DNA of 64,000 nucleotides, taken from IMG/VR virus record IMGVR_UViG_3300043448_000837, positions 1 to 64,000 of that record; one strand, written 5' to 3'. A program made the translations under genes and the position numbers. This document shows, piece by piece, positions 47,839 to 54,132 of this stretch (position 1 is the stretch's first letter; each line of letters starts with the position of its first letter). Source of the DNA: a virus. The notes below the pieces were generated by a model that saw nothing but the letters and a program-made list of their open reading frames with translations, made no database searches and was not told the DNA's origin.

Positions 47839-48318
47839 CTACGTGAAAAGATATTCTTTCCACTCGGGAACAATGCTGCTGTTCAACGTTAGAAGAAAAC
47901 GACTGAACGGCGCGTGGGGTCTTCTGTTCAAAGGAACTCCCCACTCTTCTGGCGTTCTGTTGTCCTTTACGTTGTTGCAGGTGTAGCAGCACGCTACCAT
48001 GTTCTCCCAAGTATCTCCGCCTCCCCGCGACTGCGGCAAAACGTGGTCAATCGTAAGGTCACGATCAGAACCGCAATACTGACAAGTGAAACCGTCACGT
48101 TTTAGAATGAGGCTACGAGAAGGTTTCTTTGCGTTGATGCGCCGAATCGGAAGCCGCACGTATGTGAGCAAACGAATGACTTGCTCGGACAGAATCTGTG
48201 CTTTTTTCTTCAGCACGAGCACAATGGCACGTCGCCAGGAGCAGACGTTGAGAGGCTCATAGCTGGCGTTAAGTACGAGAATACTTCTGTCGATGGCTAG
48301 AGTAGTAGGCGATGACAT
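47839..48318 (-). CDS. HNH endonuclease (McrA-like, bacterial type)
   Basis: LVLNASYEPL, RDGFTCQYCG, TIDHVLPQSRGG..TWEN.VACC..CNN.K. Confidence 0.9.
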   Translation of the reverse strand: MSSPTTLAIDRSILVLNASYEPLNVCSWRRAIVLVLKKKAQILSEQVIRLLTYVRLPIRRINAKKPSRSLILKRDGFTCQYCGSDRDLTIDHVLPQSRGGGDTWENMVACCYTCNNVKDNRTPEEWGVPLNRRPHAPFSRFLLTLNSSIVPEWKEYLFT

Positions 48319-48321
48319 AGT

Positions 48322-48795
48322 TTAACAATCCCCGGTGTAGCAGCCGTCGTAAGGGTCGAAGCCTTGCTCAAGATCCAAGTCCCCTTCCTCCTCGTAGCTA
48401 GGATCCGTATCAATTATAACGTGACCCAGGTAAATCATGCCGTTCTCGTAGCTGCACTCGAACTCCTGAAGTTCTGCGGAGAACTCCAGTATGTGACCCA
48501 GGCCCCTTTCTACGACTTCAGAAAAGTCGGGGTCGCGAATATCGTCGACGCGAATCGCACCAATGGTGCCGGAATCCACCGAGTACTCATTTCCATACGA
48601 ATCCTCGTAGACACCGTCGCCGTAGGCGGTGCCAAACATGAAGAACTTACGACCGTCGGCCAGAATAAACTCGTGCGAGGAGTTGTCGAAAGGAACTAGG
48701 CTGCATACTTCGTCCCATGCGTCGTGCATCACGTAGCACAGATCGCCAATATAGTAACGGACGGGAAGAGAGTTGCTCATTTCGGTTTCGTTCAT
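48322..48795 (-). CDS. Hypothetical phage protein
   Basis: YYIGDLCYVM, TAYGDG.Y, VDSGTIG; leaderless after TATAAT. Confidence 0.7.
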   Translation of the reverse strand: MNETEMSNSLPVRYYIGDLCYVMHDAWDEVCSLVPFDNSSHEFILADGRKFFMFGTAYGDGVYEDSYGNEYSVDSGTIGAIRVDDIRDPDFSEVVERGLGHILEFSAELQEFECSYENGMIYLGHVIIDTDPSYEEEGDLDLEQGFDPYDGCYTGDC

Positions 48796-48860
48796 GTAAG
48801 TATTATAGGTCAGCTTGGGAGCCAGCGGTCAGAAAGGTAGGCGGTTTGAGAACCGGCCTA
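48796..48860 (-). promoter_or_regulatory. Reduced early promoter cassette D
   Basis: TATAAT-6-ATG; upstream inverted repeat taggcggtt/aaccggccta. Confidence 0.65.
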
Positions 48861-49049
48861 CTCGGCTTCCTGCCAGGCGTTGATGGCGTCTCGGGCGATC
48901 TCGTCGTCGGTCATCTGGGCAGCGTCATAAGGCTGGTCGAGGATGTAGCGGACCTCGGCCTCAGCCGCGTAGCGGCAGTCCCAGCCGGCACCGTGCTCGG
49001 CCCAGGCGTCGACAATAGCCATGATCAGTTCGAATCGGTTCATTTCCAT
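48858..49049 (-). CDS. Hypothetical early protein (start MEMNRF)
   Basis: ATG 6 nt after TATGCT of cassette E. Confidence 0.6.
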   Translation of the reverse strand: MEMNRFELIMAIVDAWAEHGAGWDCRYAAEAEVRYILDQPYDAAQMTDDEIARDAINAWQEAE

Positions 49050-49122
49050 GCTATAAGCATAGCTCATTTTGCCAGTTCTGCAAAGGGGGTAAACCGTCCT
49101 CCCAGGTACGGTTAACCGCCCT
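49050..49122 (-). promoter_or_regulatory. Early promoter cassette E
   Basis: Same repeat consensus; supplies the TAA stop of the upstream kinase gene. Confidence 0.8.
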
Positions 49123-49864
49123 GCGCCTCAGCGAGTAGGCGAGTCAGCAGGCGGTCTACCTCCGGCCACTGGGCGCTGGGCCGGTACTTGCGCAGGCGGA
49201 CCACGTGCGACATCTCAGCTGCCAGGGCCTGGGTCCACAAGGGTTCCCCCAGCCTTTGGCGAAGGTGGGCGCACAGAGGCGCAGGGTCGCCACCTGGGTG
49301 TGAGTTGAACAACCGGTGGTAATCGCTGTGCACAGACTGAAGTAATTTACCCAAGTCGAGCACGTAAGACTGGAACAAATTTTGCTTGAAGTTAGGGTCG
49401 ATCAGAACGATGCCCCCGTTATTTTCTACAATGATGTTTTCAAGCGTCAGATCTCCGTGTGAGAACGAGGATGGTAGTGGCTCAATTTCGTCGAGGATTT
49501 CGAAAGTTCGACGAACTATATCACTGTCCGCCAGAGCGACGTGCTCTGAGTGAAGACGATCTTTGTAAGAAACCCAGTCTGCATTTCGCGTTGCTGGGAC
49601 CGTTGACCACAGAAGAATCTGGTCTACCAACGTGTCAATCAGGCGAGTCGATTCAATCTGCGTGCCGCAAACTCCTTCGACAAACTCAATATCGTACTCG
49701 GAACTGGACACGCAAATGGTTTGAGGAAGTCGAATCCCTGGTGTCAAAGTGTACCGCGAGGCAGTACGAAACCAGTCGCACTGCTCAGCGGCATCCTTAC
49801 ACTTCTTTCGTATGAAATCCCCGGAGAAATCCAGGGTCGCACCACTACTTCCCTTCACGAACAA
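49112..49864 (-). CDS. APH/choline-kinase-like phosphotransferase
   Basis: KGSSGA, FSHGDLTLENI, LIDP, DLGKLLQS. Confidence 0.85.
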   Translation of the reverse strand: MFVKGSSGATLDFSGDFIRKKCKDAAEQCDWFRTASRYTLTPGIRLPQTICVSSSEYDIEFVEGVCGTQIESTRLIDTLVDQILLWSTVPATRNADWVSYKDRLHSEHVALADSDIVRRTFEILDEIEPLPSSFSHGDLTLENIIVENNGGIVLIDPNFKQNLFQSYVLDLGKLLQSVHSDYHRLFNSHPGGDPAPLCAHLRQRLGEPLWTQALAAEMSHVVRLRKYRPSAQWPEVDRLLTRLLAEAQGG

Positions 49865-50558
49865 GCTCCCGAATCCGAGCGCAATCGGCCTCGTAAGTTA
49901 GATCGCCCCAAGTTACACCCAGGGAAGAAAGCGAGATTGCCTCCCGAGTCTTGGCCATGTTGATCATATCGGTGATTTCAACCTCGCCACGATCACTCTT
50001 ACGCAGCTCACCAATCGTGTTCAAGTAACCAGCTGGAAAACGCGCGAAGCCGCAGAAGTAACGACCTTCCAGTTGGCCATGAGGTTTTTCAACTACGTAA
50101 TCTTCAATCACGGTAGCCAGCTGCAGGTTTCGCGGACTCAGTGATTTGTGCAGGAAGGTGAAATAAACTGAATTGTCAAGATCTGAACTCAGCAGAACTC
50201 GTTCTGCAATTGGCATTACCCCTTGATAGTAGTTGTCCCCAAACAATACGGTAAACGGTCCGTCAATCACACCGGCCCACGTTGTAATGGCAGCGCCAGG
50301 ACCATAGGTGTCTTCACTCTGGAAGCGCACGATCGGATCACAAATCTTTGATACTTCGTCAAGAACCGGGTGGTAGATCCGTGTCCCGTCCGTTTTCACT
50401 GCCGACCTTGAAAGTGTCAGGTAAATGTTCTCGGCTCCGTTATCCAGAGCGAACAGTGCCGCCAAGTAGGGAAGCGACATGCCATCAAACTTCTCCTCAA
50501 GTTTATTTCGGCCGAACCGAGTGCTACGACCGGCAGCAAGAATGAGTGCGTTCTTCAT
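49845..50558 (-). CDS. Sugar-1-phosphate nucleotidyltransferase (RmlA-like)
   Basis: ALILAAGRSTRF, VLFGDN, VEKP, SDRGEVEITD. Confidence 0.88.
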   Translation of the reverse strand: MKNALILAAGRSTRFGRNKLEEKFDGMSLPYLAALFALDNGAENIYLTLSRSAVKTDGTRIYHPVLDEVSKICDPIVRFQSEDTYGPGAAITTWAGVIDGPFTVLFGDNYYQGVMPIAERVLLSSDLDNSVYFTFLHKSLSPRNLQLATVIEDYVVEKPHGQLEGRYFCGFARFPAGYLNTIGELRKSDRGEVEITDMINMAKTREAISLSSLGVTWGDLTYEADCARIRELVREGK

Positions 50559-50911
50559 TGTGCGATTTCTTTGTATTTTGCGGAGAACTGAGCGGGTGTC
50601 ACCGCTTTGTCGTCAACGTAGTACGCCGCCCACGGTTTTCCAATCTGAATGGAATCGTAAGGCACATCGTATTTAGTGCAGAATTTTTCGATTTCCTCGA
50701 TAACTTCTTGCCTCACACTTTCGATATTTCCGTTTGAGCGCCCCATTCCACGAGCCGTATGAAGAATAATCGTCCACCCTGCCTCCTTCATTGCTCGCAT
50801 ACCCGTGATAACTTCCATCTTTGGGCGCGAGTTCTCGTAGTCCCTGTTTACCGTGATAAGGATTGTGTCGTCAACGTCGAAGACAATGGTTTTCTTTGGG
50901 TCGGGAATCAT
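50555..50911 (-). CDS. HAD class IIIC phosphatase (capsule-biosynthesis type)
   Basis: VFDVDDTI, HTARGM, VPYD, GKPW, YYVDDKA. Confidence 0.88.
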   Translation of the reverse strand: MIPDPKKTIVFDVDDTILITVNRDYENSRPKMEVITGMRAMKEAGWTIILHTARGMGRSNGNIESVRQEVIEEIEKFCTKYDVPYDSIQIGKPWAAYYVDDKAVTPAQFSAKYKEIAQ

Positions 50912-50982
50912 AGAGAGTCAGGAGCTGATCTAAACATAGGTCGCGAGAGCTGCAAGTAAAGGGCGGAAACCCGCCCAGTTTC

Positions 50983-51807
50983 TCACACAGGAATGACTTC
51001 TGTCGTCAGAGTTTTTAGGCGAATCTCAGCGTATCGAGAAAGCCACTCGTCCTTCGTCCGTCTGGTCTTAGGTGTTGCCAGCTCAGAGAACTCAGCGCAG
51101 ATTCGCTCAACCGTCTCGTTGTTGGTTTGAAGTTTCCGTTCCAGGTCTTCGCAAGTGCCACCACCACCGGTGTGTTGCTTTGCCTTGACGCAAACGTTGT
51201 CGAACCGTAGGGTTCCCTTTCCGTGCACAGTGTGGTACAGCGACAGGAAGTAATCGTCTTTCATGCTGTACTCCGTGATTCGATCAAACGCTGGGTCGCC
51301 AGCGTAGAAACCGAAGGCGTGGCCCATAATGAACTTAAGACCCACGGTGATCTTAGGGTGGAGGAAGCCTTTGTTACGCACTGCGTAGAAACCCCAGAGG
51401 CCGACATCTCGTCGCCCGCTCATTCGAAACCCTCGCTCAATCAGCTCGGACATATTTTCCACCGAGTTTAGGCGGCTCGGGTGGTCCAGCGGCTTTTGCG
51501 TCCCGGTCAGCGGGGCAAGCAGTTCGAGTTCCTCAACGGCGCTAACATCGTCGTCAAATGAAAAAACAGCTGTTCCCTTGTCGTAATAGTTGGAAATGAA
51601 GCGACGTTGATTCGTCAATCCTTTCTCACCAACAACAATCTTGTACTGCGGGTTTGAACTTTGATATTTTTCCAACTCCTGGTCGTTGGCCACGAACAAA
51701 GTCACTCGGGACAGATCGACGTCGGTTTTTTCAAGATAATTCAGAGTCAGTTTTCGGACGCCGTCTGGGCGCCCGTAAGTTGGTATGGCAATCTGGTAAT
51801 CAAGCAT
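50983..51807 (-). CDS. GT-A fold glycosyltransferase, TET-associated (TAGT/GREB1-like)
   Basis: IAIPTYGRP, KGLTNQRRFI, SFDDD, KDDY, GGG; start reassigned to MLDYQ. Confidence 0.8.
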   Translation of the reverse strand: MLDYQIAIPTYGRPDGVRKLTLNYLEKTDVDLSRVTLFVANDQELEKYQSSNPQYKIVVGEKGLTNQRRFISNYYDKGTAVFSFDDDVSAVEELELLAPLTGTQKPLDHPSRLNSVENMSELIERGFRMSGRRDVGLWGFYAVRNKGFLHPKITVGLKFIMGHAFGFYAGDPAFDRITEYSMKDDYFLSLYHTVHGKGTLRFDNVCVKAKQHTGGGGTCEDLERKLQTNNETVERICAEFSELATPKTRRTKDEWLSRYAEIRLKTLTTEVIPV

Positions 51808-53164
51808 TGGGAGTAACGTCGGGTTGTCCTTTGATGTTGGTGTTGGAGCAGCGCTCCATCTTTTGAAGCTTCTTGTACTCATCCCACTCAGGGCTGCACC
51901 ACATTCCGGGGAAGGAACCGTTCCACTTCGGCTCACCTGTTCCTCGCTCAGGGTGGTTGGTTGTAACCCATTCCATGAAGGATCGTCGGCAAGCTTCACA
52001 TTCCAGGTCATCCAGGGTAACGATTGCGTCCCGTGAGTAAAACACAAGAACAAGGTTCTCAGCATCCTCGCTCAGTGGAACGAATGGAGTTTGACCGTGA
52101 ACAAAGCCCTGGTTGTCTCCAATCAGAATGTCACCGTGGCGCATGTGGAAACCAAGGCCAAGTTGAGGCATCACAAAGTCAACGCCATCGTAGGAACCCC
52201 GGTCCATACAAACGAGAGCGGCCACAGCGTCCTTTGCGTTCTGACCGTCGTAATGCCAGCAGGTGGAAAAGTTGTAGTTACAGGTGATTGAGGAGAAGAC
52301 CGTGTCAAACAGGCTGTAACGGGTATCTGCGATATCCTTGTACCTATTTCGCAGGATCCCCCACTCCCTCGGAAAGAGGTCTTTTGTCAGAGAATCAACT
52401 TCCTTGTAGAAAGGTGCGAAAGAAGCGAAGTCGTCGTACCGCTCCATCGTCGGGGCAGTCAACCGGGCAAAGGGTGTTCTCCCTGAGCGAGTGATTGTGC
52501 CTAGAACGGCTGAGAAAACTTTCTGCCCCCGAGGTTGCTTCGTTACGTAACGTGCTTTCCCTGCGATCGCAGCCGCTTTCCGGTCCCCAGAGGGAGCCCA
52601 CTCTCGAACCAACCAATTGTCGAACCACGCCAGTTTGGCAGCATTTCTGTTCAAGATGGCCGTCTGTTTCAGGTCAAACGGCGTGCTCTTTTTTCGGACG
52701 AGGCTGTCCCACTTTTCAATCTCGTCGAGATCCACTAAACCATCCGTTTCGACTTTTCCTACAAAGTAGGTTGTTCTAGAAACGCGAGTATCAGCGGCGA
52801 CGATTGCTCTGGCTTCTTCCAAGTCGGCCACAAGGCCCTTCACAGCCTTACTGAAGAACACTTTCTGACCTTCGGTTAGCCGGATTTCCACGTTCGTGGT
52901 GATTTCCGAACCAGCGGCGTTCCCGCGTTGATCTGACAGAAGGGACTTACAGGCCCAGCGCCAGTACTCAAATTCTTTGCTGTTGGGTCGGATATTGGCT
53001 GCTGCTTTCAGACCTTTTTTGCGAAAAGCGACGGCAAGTGAACCATCGGGGCGGTACACGTTGCAATCTTCATCGATAAGTTCAAGGAAATCCGTCGATG
53101 AAGGCACTCCACCAAGTCGTTTGTCGTCAAACGGAACTAGCGCGTCTAAGTAAATTTCTCTCAT
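51800..53164 (-). CDS. TET/JBP-family Fe(II)/2-oxoglutarate dioxygenase
   Basis: RGNAAG, FSSITCNYNFSTCWHYDGQN (HxD), GDILIGD, VHGQTP, LVFYSR. Confidence 0.82.
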   Translation of the reverse strand: MREIYLDALVPFDDKRLGGVPSSTDFLELIDEDCNVYRPDGSLAVAFRKKGLKAAANIRPNSKEFEYWRWACKSLLSDQRGNAAGSEITTNVEIRLTEGQKVFFSKAVKGLVADLEEARAIVAADTRVSRTTYFVGKVETDGLVDLDEIEKWDSLVRKKSTPFDLKQTAILNRNAAKLAWFDNWLVREWAPSGDRKAAAIAGKARYVTKQPRGQKVFSAVLGTITRSGRTPFARLTAPTMERYDDFASFAPFYKEVDSLTKDLFPREWGILRNRYKDIADTRYSLFDTVFSSITCNYNFSTCWHYDGQNAKDAVAALVCMDRGSYDGVDFVMPQLGLGFHMRHGDILIGDNQGFVHGQTPFVPLSEDAENLVLVFYSRDAIVTLDDLECEACRRSFMEWVTTNHPERGTGEPKWNGSFPGMWCSPEWDEYKKLQKMERCSNTNIKGQPDVTPNA

Positions 53165-53188
53165 GATGTTTAAGGAGTAACCTCACAG

Positions 53189-53253
53189 TTTTACCCACCT
53201 CATTATAACGGTTCGGGTCAGCGGTAAGCAAAATAAAAGGCGGTTTCCCGCCC
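53189..53253 (-). promoter_or_regulatory. Dual promoter region of the TET operon
   Basis: GGGTAAAA at 53189-53196, TATAAT at 53202-53207, GGCGG-N4-CCGCC box at about 53238-53253. Confidence 0.65.
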
Positions 53254-53275
53254 ATCCGACCAACAAGTTAAGGTC

Positions 53276-53890
53276 TTACTGCGTGTATTCGCAGAGGATA
53301 TCGGACTCTTGGTCAAAGGCGCAGTTGAGCAATTTTCGCATTTGGCGGGCGACATCAAGGTCTTTACCGAGGTAAAGAGTCGTTTTCAGAAGGTCGCTGT
53401 ACACAACCGGTTGCTCTTTGGTGATTTCCTCGTCATAGAAGTTGACTCGGTAAGCAACGCCATTTGATTCGCAAAGTTCGTTTATTCGCTTTGCGTGCAG
53501 AATGAAATTCTCTCCGTGACCCTTGATTCCATCATCAAGATTCTTCATGTCGAGATAAGCGTGAAGCATCTCGTGAAGCAAGGTGCTGCGAACTTCCAGG
53601 GGATCTTTCGCAGCGTGGCGGGCGAGTTTGATTTCCCCAGTTCCTCCGTTATTTGGCTTGTAAGTCCCCCACTTAGTTCTGTAACGACCTTCCCACTTGA
53701 GACGCGGATACGAGTTCCAGGTCTCTCCGTTTTCGTCGGTGCGAGAGACAACCTTGGGGACCGGGAGTTCTCCGTTGAAATACTTCGCATTGAACTCGGC
53801 GTACAACTCGCCAAGGTCATAAATCGCGCAAGGGTTGGGGCAGAACCGTTCAAGAAACGAGTTTGAAACTACCGTTTTGAATTCCGTCAT
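53276..53890 (-). CDS. SprT-like zinc metalloprotease
   Basis: FNAKYFNGEL, TLLHEMLH, HGENF. Confidence 0.85.
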   Translation of the reverse strand: MTEFKTVVSNSFLERFCPNPCAIYDLGELYAEFNAKYFNGELPVPKVVSRTDENGETWNSYPRLKWEGRYRTKWGTYKPNNGGTGEIKLARHAAKDPLEVRSTLLHEMLHAYLDMKNLDDGIKGHGENFILHAKRINELCESNGVAYRVNFYDEEITKEQPVVYSDLLKTTLYLGKDLDVARQMRKLLNCAFDQESDILCEYTQ

Positions 53891-54132
53891 CAGTCGCGAG
53901 CGGAGTGGATGGACTCGTTGATCTTCGCGGCGTAGGCCGTGGGGCTCATGCCGGTGACGGCGGACCTCCACTCCAGGAAGGCCACCTCGGCCCGGTCGCA
54001 GAGGTCTTCGTACTTGGCGATGGCATGCGGTGCCCAGGGGCTGGCCATGGCACCCTGCTTGTGGTAGAAGGCCAGCTTGACCTGGGTGGCTTCTTCGTAG
54101 AGGGCTTTGAGTTGGGTTTGAACGTCTTTCAT
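53890..54132 (-). CDS. Hypothetical early protein
   Basis: Leaderless after cassette H. Confidence 0.65.
   Translation of the reverse strand: MKDVQTQLKALYEEATQVKLAFYHKQGAMASPWAPHAIAKYEDLCDRAEVAFLEWRSAVTGMSPTAYAAKINESIHSARD

Follow-up and report, generated by a model that had tools for sequence, protein, structure and literature searches.

Several described systems pair an altered DNA base with enzymes that decorate it further. In base J of the kinetoplastids, the TET/JBP dioxygenases JBP1 and JBP2 oxidise thymine (T) to 5-hydroxymethyluracil (5hmU), and the base-J glucosyltransferase (JGT), a GT-A enzyme of the TET-associated glycosyltransferase (TAGT) family, glycosylates the product. For the supply of activated sugars there are the bacterial ADP-heptose (HldE/GmhB) and N-acetylmuramic acid (MurNAc) recycling (MupP/AmgK/MurU) routes, where an anomeric kinase, a HAD phosphatase and a nucleotidyltransferase together yield a nucleoside diphosphate (NDP)-sugar without a mutase. 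Phage HY126 employs AfhE, which joins a nucleotidyltransferase and a kinase, with the HAD protein AfhF, converting arabinose-5-phosphate through the 1,5-bisphosphate and the 1-phosphate to UDP-arabinose for arabinosyl-5-hydroxycytosine; RB69, DLP3 and Serratia 92A1 carry the same Afh genes (PMC13326640). T oxidation has been demonstrated for phage 5mYOX enzymes whose genes have no C5-methyltransferase gene next to them (PMC13229309), and the amino-acid:DNA transferases (AADTs) act on activated 5hmU in DNA (PMC8989533). Here we describe a set of five genes from the first 64,000 nucleotides of the IMG/VR virus record IMGVR_UViG_3300043448_000837, a stretch that we refer to as the window. We consider it probable that these genes form a DNA hypermodification module of an S-CBWM1-like cyanomyovirus, in which thymine is oxidised and a phage-made sugar is then attached.

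The virus record is 114 kb long and is estimated by CheckV to be ~51% complete. Its capsid, portal, terminase, sheath, polymerase, gyrase, ribonucleotide reductase and psbA proteins are 45-85% identical to those of Synechococcus phage S-CBWM1 (genus Aokuangvirus), therefore we regard it as an uncultured relative of this cyanomyovirus. The five genes of the original prediction are all present and lie head to tail on the minus strand between 49112 and 53164. They encode a TET/JBP-family dioxygenase of 454 amino acids (51800..53164), a TET-associated GT-A glycosyltransferase of 274 amino acids (50983..51807), a cap-less HAD phosphatase of 118 amino acids (50555..50911), a sugar-1-phosphate nucleotidyltransferase of 237 amino acids (49845..50558) and an APH/choline-kinase-like small-molecule kinase of 250 amino acids (49112..49864). 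The glycosyltransferase reading frame as listed (50983-52065) overlaps the dioxygenase gene; the true start codon is the ATG at 51807, so that the gene overlaps the dioxygenase stop by 8 nt, with both start and stop inside ATGCTTGA. The nucleotidyltransferase gene overlaps the stop of the HAD gene by 4 nt, and the kinase may start 2 codons downstream of the listed TTG.

Family membership and gene context suggest how such a module would operate. The dioxygenase would act on phage DNA after its polymerisation and convert thymine to 5hmU by hydroxylating the methyl group. In parallel, a host sugar phosphate would be converted to an NDP-sugar by three enzymes: the APH-like kinase would phosphorylate the anomeric carbon, the small HAD phosphatase would take off the distal phosphate and the nucleotidyltransferase would join the resulting sugar-1-phosphate to a nucleoside triphosphate. 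The JGT-like GT-A enzyme, which is translationally coupled to the dioxygenase, would then place the sugar on the hydroxyl group of 5hmU. The predicted product is a base-J-like, O-glycosylated 5hmU, and its purpose is likely the shielding of phage DNA from host nucleases.

How does this scheme compare with the systems above? The resemblance to base J extends to the sequence motifs, as the R...DDD...DDY/F pattern of JGT is also found in the window's glycosyltransferase. The window system differs in being viral and in carrying no J-binding or SNF2 domain, and three phage enzymes apparently provide its donor, whereas base J draws on the cellular UDP-glucose pool. The bacterial ADP-heptose and MurNAc routes also differ from it, in that the window has no GmhA-type or other SIS isomerase and its kinase is APH-like rather than ribokinase-like.

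Among phage enzymes, clades C1 and C2 of 5mYOX (PMC13229309; PMC8256090; Pyle et al., Cell Rep 2024) are similar in having no neighbouring C5-methyltransferase and in their linkage to a glycosyltransferase or to GATase, kinase and AADT genes. Unlike the characterised enzymes, which span ~280-320 amino acids, the window's dioxygenase is enlarged by a big helical insertion, and it has neither a ParB partner nor the canonical Arg-x-Ser. The published studies of phage 5mYOX clusters (PMC13229309; PMC8256090; Pyle et al.) report no glycosylated 5hmU product. The 5hmU kinase/AADT system of thymidine hypermodification (PMC8989533) is linked to our locus through close relatives of the dioxygenase, whose genes immediately precede those for AADT (PF18724), GATase and ATP-grasp proteins; because of this position we propose that the dioxygenase family feeds 5hmU into hypermodification. 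The window itself has no AADT, and the hydroxyl group of 5hmU would be glycosylated directly, rather than pyrophosphorylated and substituted.

The likeness to the AfhE/AfhF pathway (PMC13326640; Mahler et al., Cell Host Microbe 2025) lies in the use of a phage kinase, a HAD phosphatase and a nucleotidyltransferase to make an NDP-sugar for DNA, and the window trio looks like a split version of that route. The differences are nonetheless considerable. In the window the nucleotidyltransferase and the kinase are encoded by separate genes and the former appears to be of a different lineage; there is no isomerase and no ThyA-like 5-hydroxy-dCMP synthase; the glycosyltransferase is a GT-A enzyme of the TAGT family and not GT-B; and the acceptor, probably a uracil derivative, would be made after replication by the dioxygenase.

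The suggestion of a candidate new DNA hypermodification consequently holds in part. The combination and its product are undescribed, but the parts have been published before: phage T dioxygenases, the GT-A enzymes that accompany them and the APH and HAD domains found alongside, which are listed as neighbours in surveys of phage 5mYOX and GT-A enzymes (PMC13229309; bioRxiv 10.1101/2023.12.21.572611), as well as a phage kinase/phosphatase/nucleotidyltransferase route to a donor for DNA glycosylation (PMC13326640). What is new is the combination itself and its presence, under misleading annotations, in the genomes of a cultured cyanophage and a cultured Stenotrophomonas phage, together with the predicted O-glycosylated 5hmU product and a subclade of dioxygenases that lack an arginine described further below. 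A literature search of limited phrasing found no report of glycosylated 5hmU in phage DNA. If the proposal is true, a thymine derivative bearing a sugar is present in the DNA of S-CBWM1-group cyanophages and of the soil phage DLP6. Base J, so far known only from kinetoplastids and their kin, would then have a viral counterpart, one whose sugar donor is made by the phage. Such DNA would have consequences for restriction and CRISPR as well as for the nanopore base-calling of phages that are abundant in aquatic habitats. Two carriers, S-CBWM1 and DLP6, are in culture.

The identity of the dioxygenase is well supported, in line with the initial assignment to the iron(II)- and 2-oxoglutarate-dependent TET/JBP enzymes. 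It matches the Pfam Tet_JBP hidden Markov model (PF12851) at residues 248-378 with 51.8 bits against a cut-off of 34.9. Its H304-Y-D306 and H356-G motifs are invariant in 26 homologues, and the iron ligands H304, D306 and H356 were found to be invariant in a separate set of 10 aligned homologues as well. The AlphaFold2 model (predicted local distance difference test score, pLDDT, 92.8) resembles TET2 most closely, with a Z-score of 20.1 over 261 aligned residues and a root-mean-square deviation of 4.0, followed by CMD1 (Z 19.1) and NgTET1 (Z 18.6); AlkB-type enzymes score ~12-14. The base-contact motif is Y376-x-R378. Full-length homologues are common in metagenomes, where they form >120 clusters. 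From these matches we predict that the protein is a thymine C5-methyl hydroxylase acting on DNA.

The long N-terminal part of the dioxygenase is best viewed as a TET core with a helical insertion, since it is covered by the structural alignments to TET2 and CMD1, which extend over residues 1 to ~400. For the same reason we discarded a reading of the first 250 residues as a distinct domain, e.g. a ParB-like one, fused to the dioxygenase. An Atlas search with residues 1-245 gave weak leads of the Tet_JBP type only. We also rejected membership of the ParB-dependent subclass, as no ParB_N domain (PF02195) was found in the 114-kb record or in S-CBWM1; the dioxygenase would therefore group with the ParB-less 5mYOX members.

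The neighbouring glycosyltransferase was expected to be a GT-A enzyme with IPTYGR and DDD motifs, and both the family and the motifs hold up. The protein matches Pfam TAGT (PF20691) with 37.1 bits against a cut-off of 27.5, over profile positions 1-94 of 205 only, and PHROG 842 over nearly its full length (E 2.9e-10); many of its homologues carry PF20691. Its AlphaFold2 model (pLDDT 93.8) has the GT-A fold, with matches to RmlT, AvpGT, TarS and TarP at E 1e-6 to 1e-7. Among the homologues R13 of IPTYGR and D85-D86-D87 are invariant and K183 and D185 are nearly so; these last two belong to a K183-D-D-Y-F motif, in which Y186 was read from the sequence. The motif series R...DDD...(E/K)DDY/F is common to phage GT-A enzymes and the base-J glucosyltransferase (bioRxiv 10.1101/2023.12.21.572611). 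The predicted role of this enzyme is to move a sugar onto 5hmU in DNA.

The three remaining proteins are predicted to supply that sugar. The small HAD protein matches the TIGR01689 model EcbF/BcbF ('capsule biosynthesis phosphatase') at E 3.6e-26, short of the cut-off for that model, HAD-IIIA at E 3e-7 and PHROG 1238 at E 1.3e-21. All four HAD motifs are present (among them DxD at 12-14, T52 and K...DD), and the protein shows no significant similarity to MupP (E 0.098). In a tblastn search (394 records) it is 30-38% identical, over ~87% of its length, to the HAD proteins of Mosigvirus, Serratia 92A1 and Acinetobacter T4-like phages. We predict that it removes the distal phosphate of a sugar 1,n-bisphosphate, as AfhF and GmhB do. 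A general role of this kind for the family is suggested by the T4-like cyanophage S-CAM1, in which the same HAD family is found inside an ADP-heptose cluster. As an aside for curators, the small HAD of the PHROG 1238 type is widely labelled 'phosphoheptose isomerase' in phage annotations (394 phage records). This looks like a propagated misnomer, because the proteins have HAD motifs and no SIS domain.

The nucleotidyltransferase matches NTP_transf_3 (E 1.9e-5), as well as Arch_glmU, AglF and RmlA-type models, and its N-terminal loop reads AAGRSTRFG. A search of the PDB with the single sequence gave one weak match (E 0.0041), and the family profile matched a glucose-1-phosphate thymidylyltransferase at E 9e-10. 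It is predicted to make the NDP-sugar donor. The kinase just passes the Pfam APH threshold (23.9 bits, cut-off 23.2) and has the motifs of APH and choline kinases, namely K20, HGDLTLEN at 136-143 and IDPN at 155-158. Its single sequence found no match in the PDB; its family profile found the choline kinase LicA at E 8.8e-4 and also fructosamine-3-kinase. We predict that it is the anomeric kinase of a sugar phosphate.

The evidence that these three proteins work together comes from gene fusions. An exhaustive search with the kinase returned 276 homologues. In ~70 of the 150 best representative clusters the kinase is preceded by an N-terminal domain that is 35-49% identical to the window's HAD protein, and one further cluster (P0133) is a nucleotidyltransferase-kinase fusion. 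We scanned loci for HAD-kinase fusions with a 10-sequence alignment as the query and found 32 viral contigs; a Tet_JBP gene is adjacent in 3 of them, and a TAGT gene occurs on 5 and a divergent ThyA-like gene on 17, the latter often within ~1 kb. Furthermore, the kinase family aligns with residues 226-429 of the AfhE-type protein of Serratia 92A1 (566 amino acids) with a probability of 94.4% and E 8.5e-8 (hhalign). The fusions, the homology of the phosphatase to AfhF-type HAD proteins and that of the kinase to half of AfhE support the earlier suggestion of a sugar donor produced by the phage itself through the kinase, phosphatase and nucleotidyltransferase logic of the heptose pathway.

Which sugar is activated? 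Domains of the SIS isomerases (PF01380 and PF13580, which include the arabinose-5-phosphate type) were not found in the record or in the complete S-CBWM1 genome, so the substrate must be a host sugar phosphate. Heptose was considered and is unsupported, as there is no GmhA-type SIS_2 domain and no ribokinase-type kinase. We also tried copying the arabinose reading from RB69, and again no SIS isomerase was found in the phage.

Several points weigh against the module as proposed, and we set them out here. In TET2 and NgTET1 an arginine and a serine hold the C5 carboxylate of 2-oxoglutarate; the window's dioxygenase has neither, so that its activity or co-substrate could differ. A methyltransferase could lie in the missing part of the incomplete record, although the complete S-CBWM1 has none. 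When the nucleotidyltransferase is compared with the N-terminal domain of AfhE, the glycine loop alone aligns (E 0.0037, probability 9%). The sugar cannot be transferred from the arabinose system, given that there is no arabinose-5-phosphate isomerase. Finally, homologues of the HAD protein also occur in bacterial loci that resemble capsule or lipopolysaccharide clusters.

The last of these points raises the question of whether the sugar is meant for DNA at all. The glycosyltransferase and the trio might instead serve a virion protein or a host surface polysaccharide, with the dioxygenase an unrelated neighbour or an enzyme for some other substrate. HAD homologues are widespread in bacterial loci beside APH-like and nucleotidyltransferase-like genes, where they bear the name 'capsule biosynthesis phosphatase'; the ADP-heptose cluster of S-CAM1 is near a tail-fibre-like gene; and distant homologues of the glycosyltransferase are found in mycobacteriophages with no obvious dioxygenase. 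We nevertheless think this very improbable. The start of the glycosyltransferase gene overlaps the stop of the dioxygenase gene, and the enzyme is a member of the TET-associated family, as is the base-J glucosyltransferase, and has the R...DDD...DDY motifs. In addition, the dioxygenase and the other four genes are found together in three distant phage lineages, and the viral HAD-kinase fusions are mostly on contigs with genes that make hydroxylated pyrimidines.

Two groups of cellular loci are worth recording in this context. In Moraxella, Acinetobacter, Helicobacter and Pseudomonas loci (L104:7998-10737, L053:8004-10658, L071 and L055) stand-alone HAD homologues are followed by a protein of ~520 amino acids with a weak APH match and a nucleotidyltransferase-like protein of ~240 amino acids, which to judge from their sequences constitute a cellular version of the trio. 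A contig of an Alteromonadales metagenome-assembled genome (L044:5489-9573) encodes a HAD-kinase fusion flanked by a protein weakly similar to the T4 DNA alpha-glucosyltransferase and, beyond an open reading frame of 161 amino acids, by a C5-cytosine methyltransferase. Here the same sugar enzymes are found in a further DNA-glycosylation setting.

If DNA is the target, as we propose, which base is modified? The starting suggestion was either thymine or 5-methylcytosine (5mC), and of these two thymine has gained support. Our comparative set consists of 35 viral loci that encode the related dioxygenase family. In at least 17 of them the dioxygenase gene is followed by an AADT module (PF18724), which comes with GATase, ATP-grasp or an inositol-1-phosphate-synthase-like gene. 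In 12 it is followed by the block of glycosyltransferase, HAD, nucleotidyltransferase and kinase genes, 7 of these having exonuclease-like and R2K ATP-grasp genes between the dioxygenase and the sugar block. Because of the AADT linkage, and in agreement with the activity reported for methyltransferase-less phage enzymes (PMC13229309), the family is best read as thymine dioxygenases, and the target base is most likely thymine.

In the competing account the same module acts on 5mC, made by the host or by an unseen phage methyltransferase, and gives glycosylated 5-hydroxymethylcytosine (5hmC), as in the published clusters of C5-methyltransferase, TET and glycosyltransferase genes. The characterised phage TETs of clades A and B do oxidise 5mC (PMC8256090), about half of the genome is available in the record, and Asn309, three residues past the aspartate of HxD, matches the TET2 asparagine that contacts N4 of 5mC (PMC7854593). 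Against this, the C5-methyltransferase domain (PF00145) that was reported missing from the cluster and the window is also absent from the whole 114-kb record, and from the complete S-CBWM1 and from DLP6; the dioxygenase family repeatedly precedes amino-acid:DNA transferases that work on 5hmU; and the published surveys take methyltransferase-less 5mYOX enzymes to be T-dioxygenases (PMC13229309). A 5mC target thus strikes us as unlikely. We also rejected pre-replicative synthesis of 5hmU or 5hmC, as no ThyA-family gene (PF00303) was found in the record or in S-CBWM1. The latter encodes ThyX, dUTPase and dCMP deaminase, and therefore makes ordinary dTTP.

The comparative loci show some further variety. 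Eight of the viral loci (L010-L015, L022 and L034; e.g. L014:8511-10921) have the dioxygenase followed by an AADT and the inositol-1-phosphate-synthase-like gene. In the cultured Caulobacter phage Cr30 (L205:1209-7682) a dioxygenase, a TAGT-like gene and an annotated inositol-1-phosphate synthase lie in one stretch. Three loci (L028:6875-10237, L035:6953-9876 and L024:6875-10560) have two tandem TET/JBP paralogues, both with E-R-V-S. An Rv2179c-like exonuclease gene and an R2K ATP-grasp gene come next, and these two genes lie between the dioxygenase and the sugar module in L026-L033.

The dioxygenase has one unusual feature, already suspected in the original prediction. The Arg-x-Ser that binds 2-oxoglutarate is missing: Asn370-Leu-Val372 aligns with Arg1896-x-Ser1898 of TET2. 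The arginine (Arg1896 in TET2, Arg289 in NgTET1) binds the C5 carboxylate of 2-oxoglutarate and has been described as strictly conserved (PMC7854593). Among 146 unique family members it is absent from 127, and E-R-V-S is kept in the other 19, which include S-CBWM1 gp8 and the DLP6 dioxygenase. No compensating conserved basic residue has been gained among the Arg-less members of this set. One candidate for the 2-oxoglutarate arginine, R378 of Y376-S-R378, was rejected, as it aligns with the base-contacting residues H1904 of TET2 and R418 of CMD1.

These replacements invite the suggestion that the Arg-less enzyme departs from ordinary 2-oxoglutarate hydroxylation, and that a different co-substrate or product, as with the vitamin C of algal CMD1, is elaborated by the downstream enzymes. 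In its favour, the equivalents of Arg1896 and Ser1898 are lost with no conserved basic residue gained in exchange, and few structures match the enzyme better than CMD1 (Z 19). We rate it as quite improbable. Arg-less and Arg-bearing members adjoin the same sugar and AADT modules, which argues for a shared product, 5hmU, and suggests that the Arg-less enzymes are probably active. Moreover, 2-oxoglutarate oxygenases bind the C5 carboxylate by residues from different strands (PMC7854593), and the invariant Arg342 could take over. A bolder version, which we consider a long shot, is that the Arg-less subclade holds its co-substrate in a new way, or uses a different one like CMD1, and that the cassette would write a base unseen in viruses: derived from thymine, bearing a phage-made sugar and with a chemistry unlike that of base J from the first step. 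The Arg-less subclade is in any case a separate enzymological question.

For the module as proposed, thymine oxidation followed by glycosylation, the cultured relatives are of particular value. In S-CBWM1 the five genes recur in unchanged order as gp8-gp12, with 36-62% identity. The Stenotrophomonas phage DLP6 (KU682439; L002:3018-7308) groups all five functions in another form. Its TAGT gene is AAY80_028; its HAD reading frame (L002:3895-4275) is not annotated in its record; AAY80_029, called ModA in the DLP6 paper, encodes 563 amino acids with an N-terminal nucleotidyltransferase domain and C-terminal kinase motifs; and AAY80_030, annotated as 'SNF2 DNA repair protein', is a homologue of the TET/JBP dioxygenase. 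According to a review table, DLP6 DNA is resistant to restriction enzymes (PMC8228603). A megablast search with the cassette against 50,697 phage records gave no match, and the relatives came from protein-level searches only.

The locus also appears to be modular. Two viral loci (L019, 6932-13773, and L020) resemble positions 47839-53971 of the window: their HNH proteins are 100% identical to the window's, a 157-amino-acid protein is 95% identical and a SprT-like protein 87%. Their dioxygenase is only 42% identical to the window's, and it is followed by GATase, a 312-amino-acid protein and AADT; the sugar module is absent. Conversely, the block of glycosyltransferase, HAD, nucleotidyltransferase and kinase genes is 82-89% identical in L026-L033, where it lies beside dioxygenases that are ~41% identical, which indicates that the block moves as one unit. 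We interpret the locus, from these comparisons, as a swappable modification island, with hairpin cassettes exactly at its joints. Near-identical phages that carry either a sugar or an AADT module behind divergent dioxygenases are a clear footprint of an arms race.

The hairpins just mentioned are of the type GG(G/C)GG-N4-CCGCC. One copy, GC-rich and with a T run, is found on the minus strand at 53238-53253 and is followed by the TATAAT (53202-53207) that had been noted ahead of the dioxygenase, 38 nt upstream of its ATG. A consensus scan of 53202-53253 did not call a full sigma-70 promoter despite this TATAAT. A second copy (50961..50976, minus strand) between the glycosyltransferase and HAD genes divides the module into a dioxygenase-glycosyltransferase unit and a phosphatase-nucleotidyltransferase-kinase unit. 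Allowing at most 1 mismatch, 11 copies occur in the window between 47165 and 62427, where ~2 are expected. They lie mostly in intergenic spaces of the early-gene region, both joints of the cassette included.

Directly upstream of the dioxygenase the window has a gene for the SprT-like metalloprotease (PF10263, E 2e-12; 53276-53971, minus strand). A homologue of this protein, 43-87% identical, is encoded just upstream of the dioxygenase in most of the related viral loci and in S-CBWM1, where it is gp6 and is annotated as a 'transcription elongation protein'. The neighbourhood could be plain synteny or a link to the repair of DNA-protein crosslinks.

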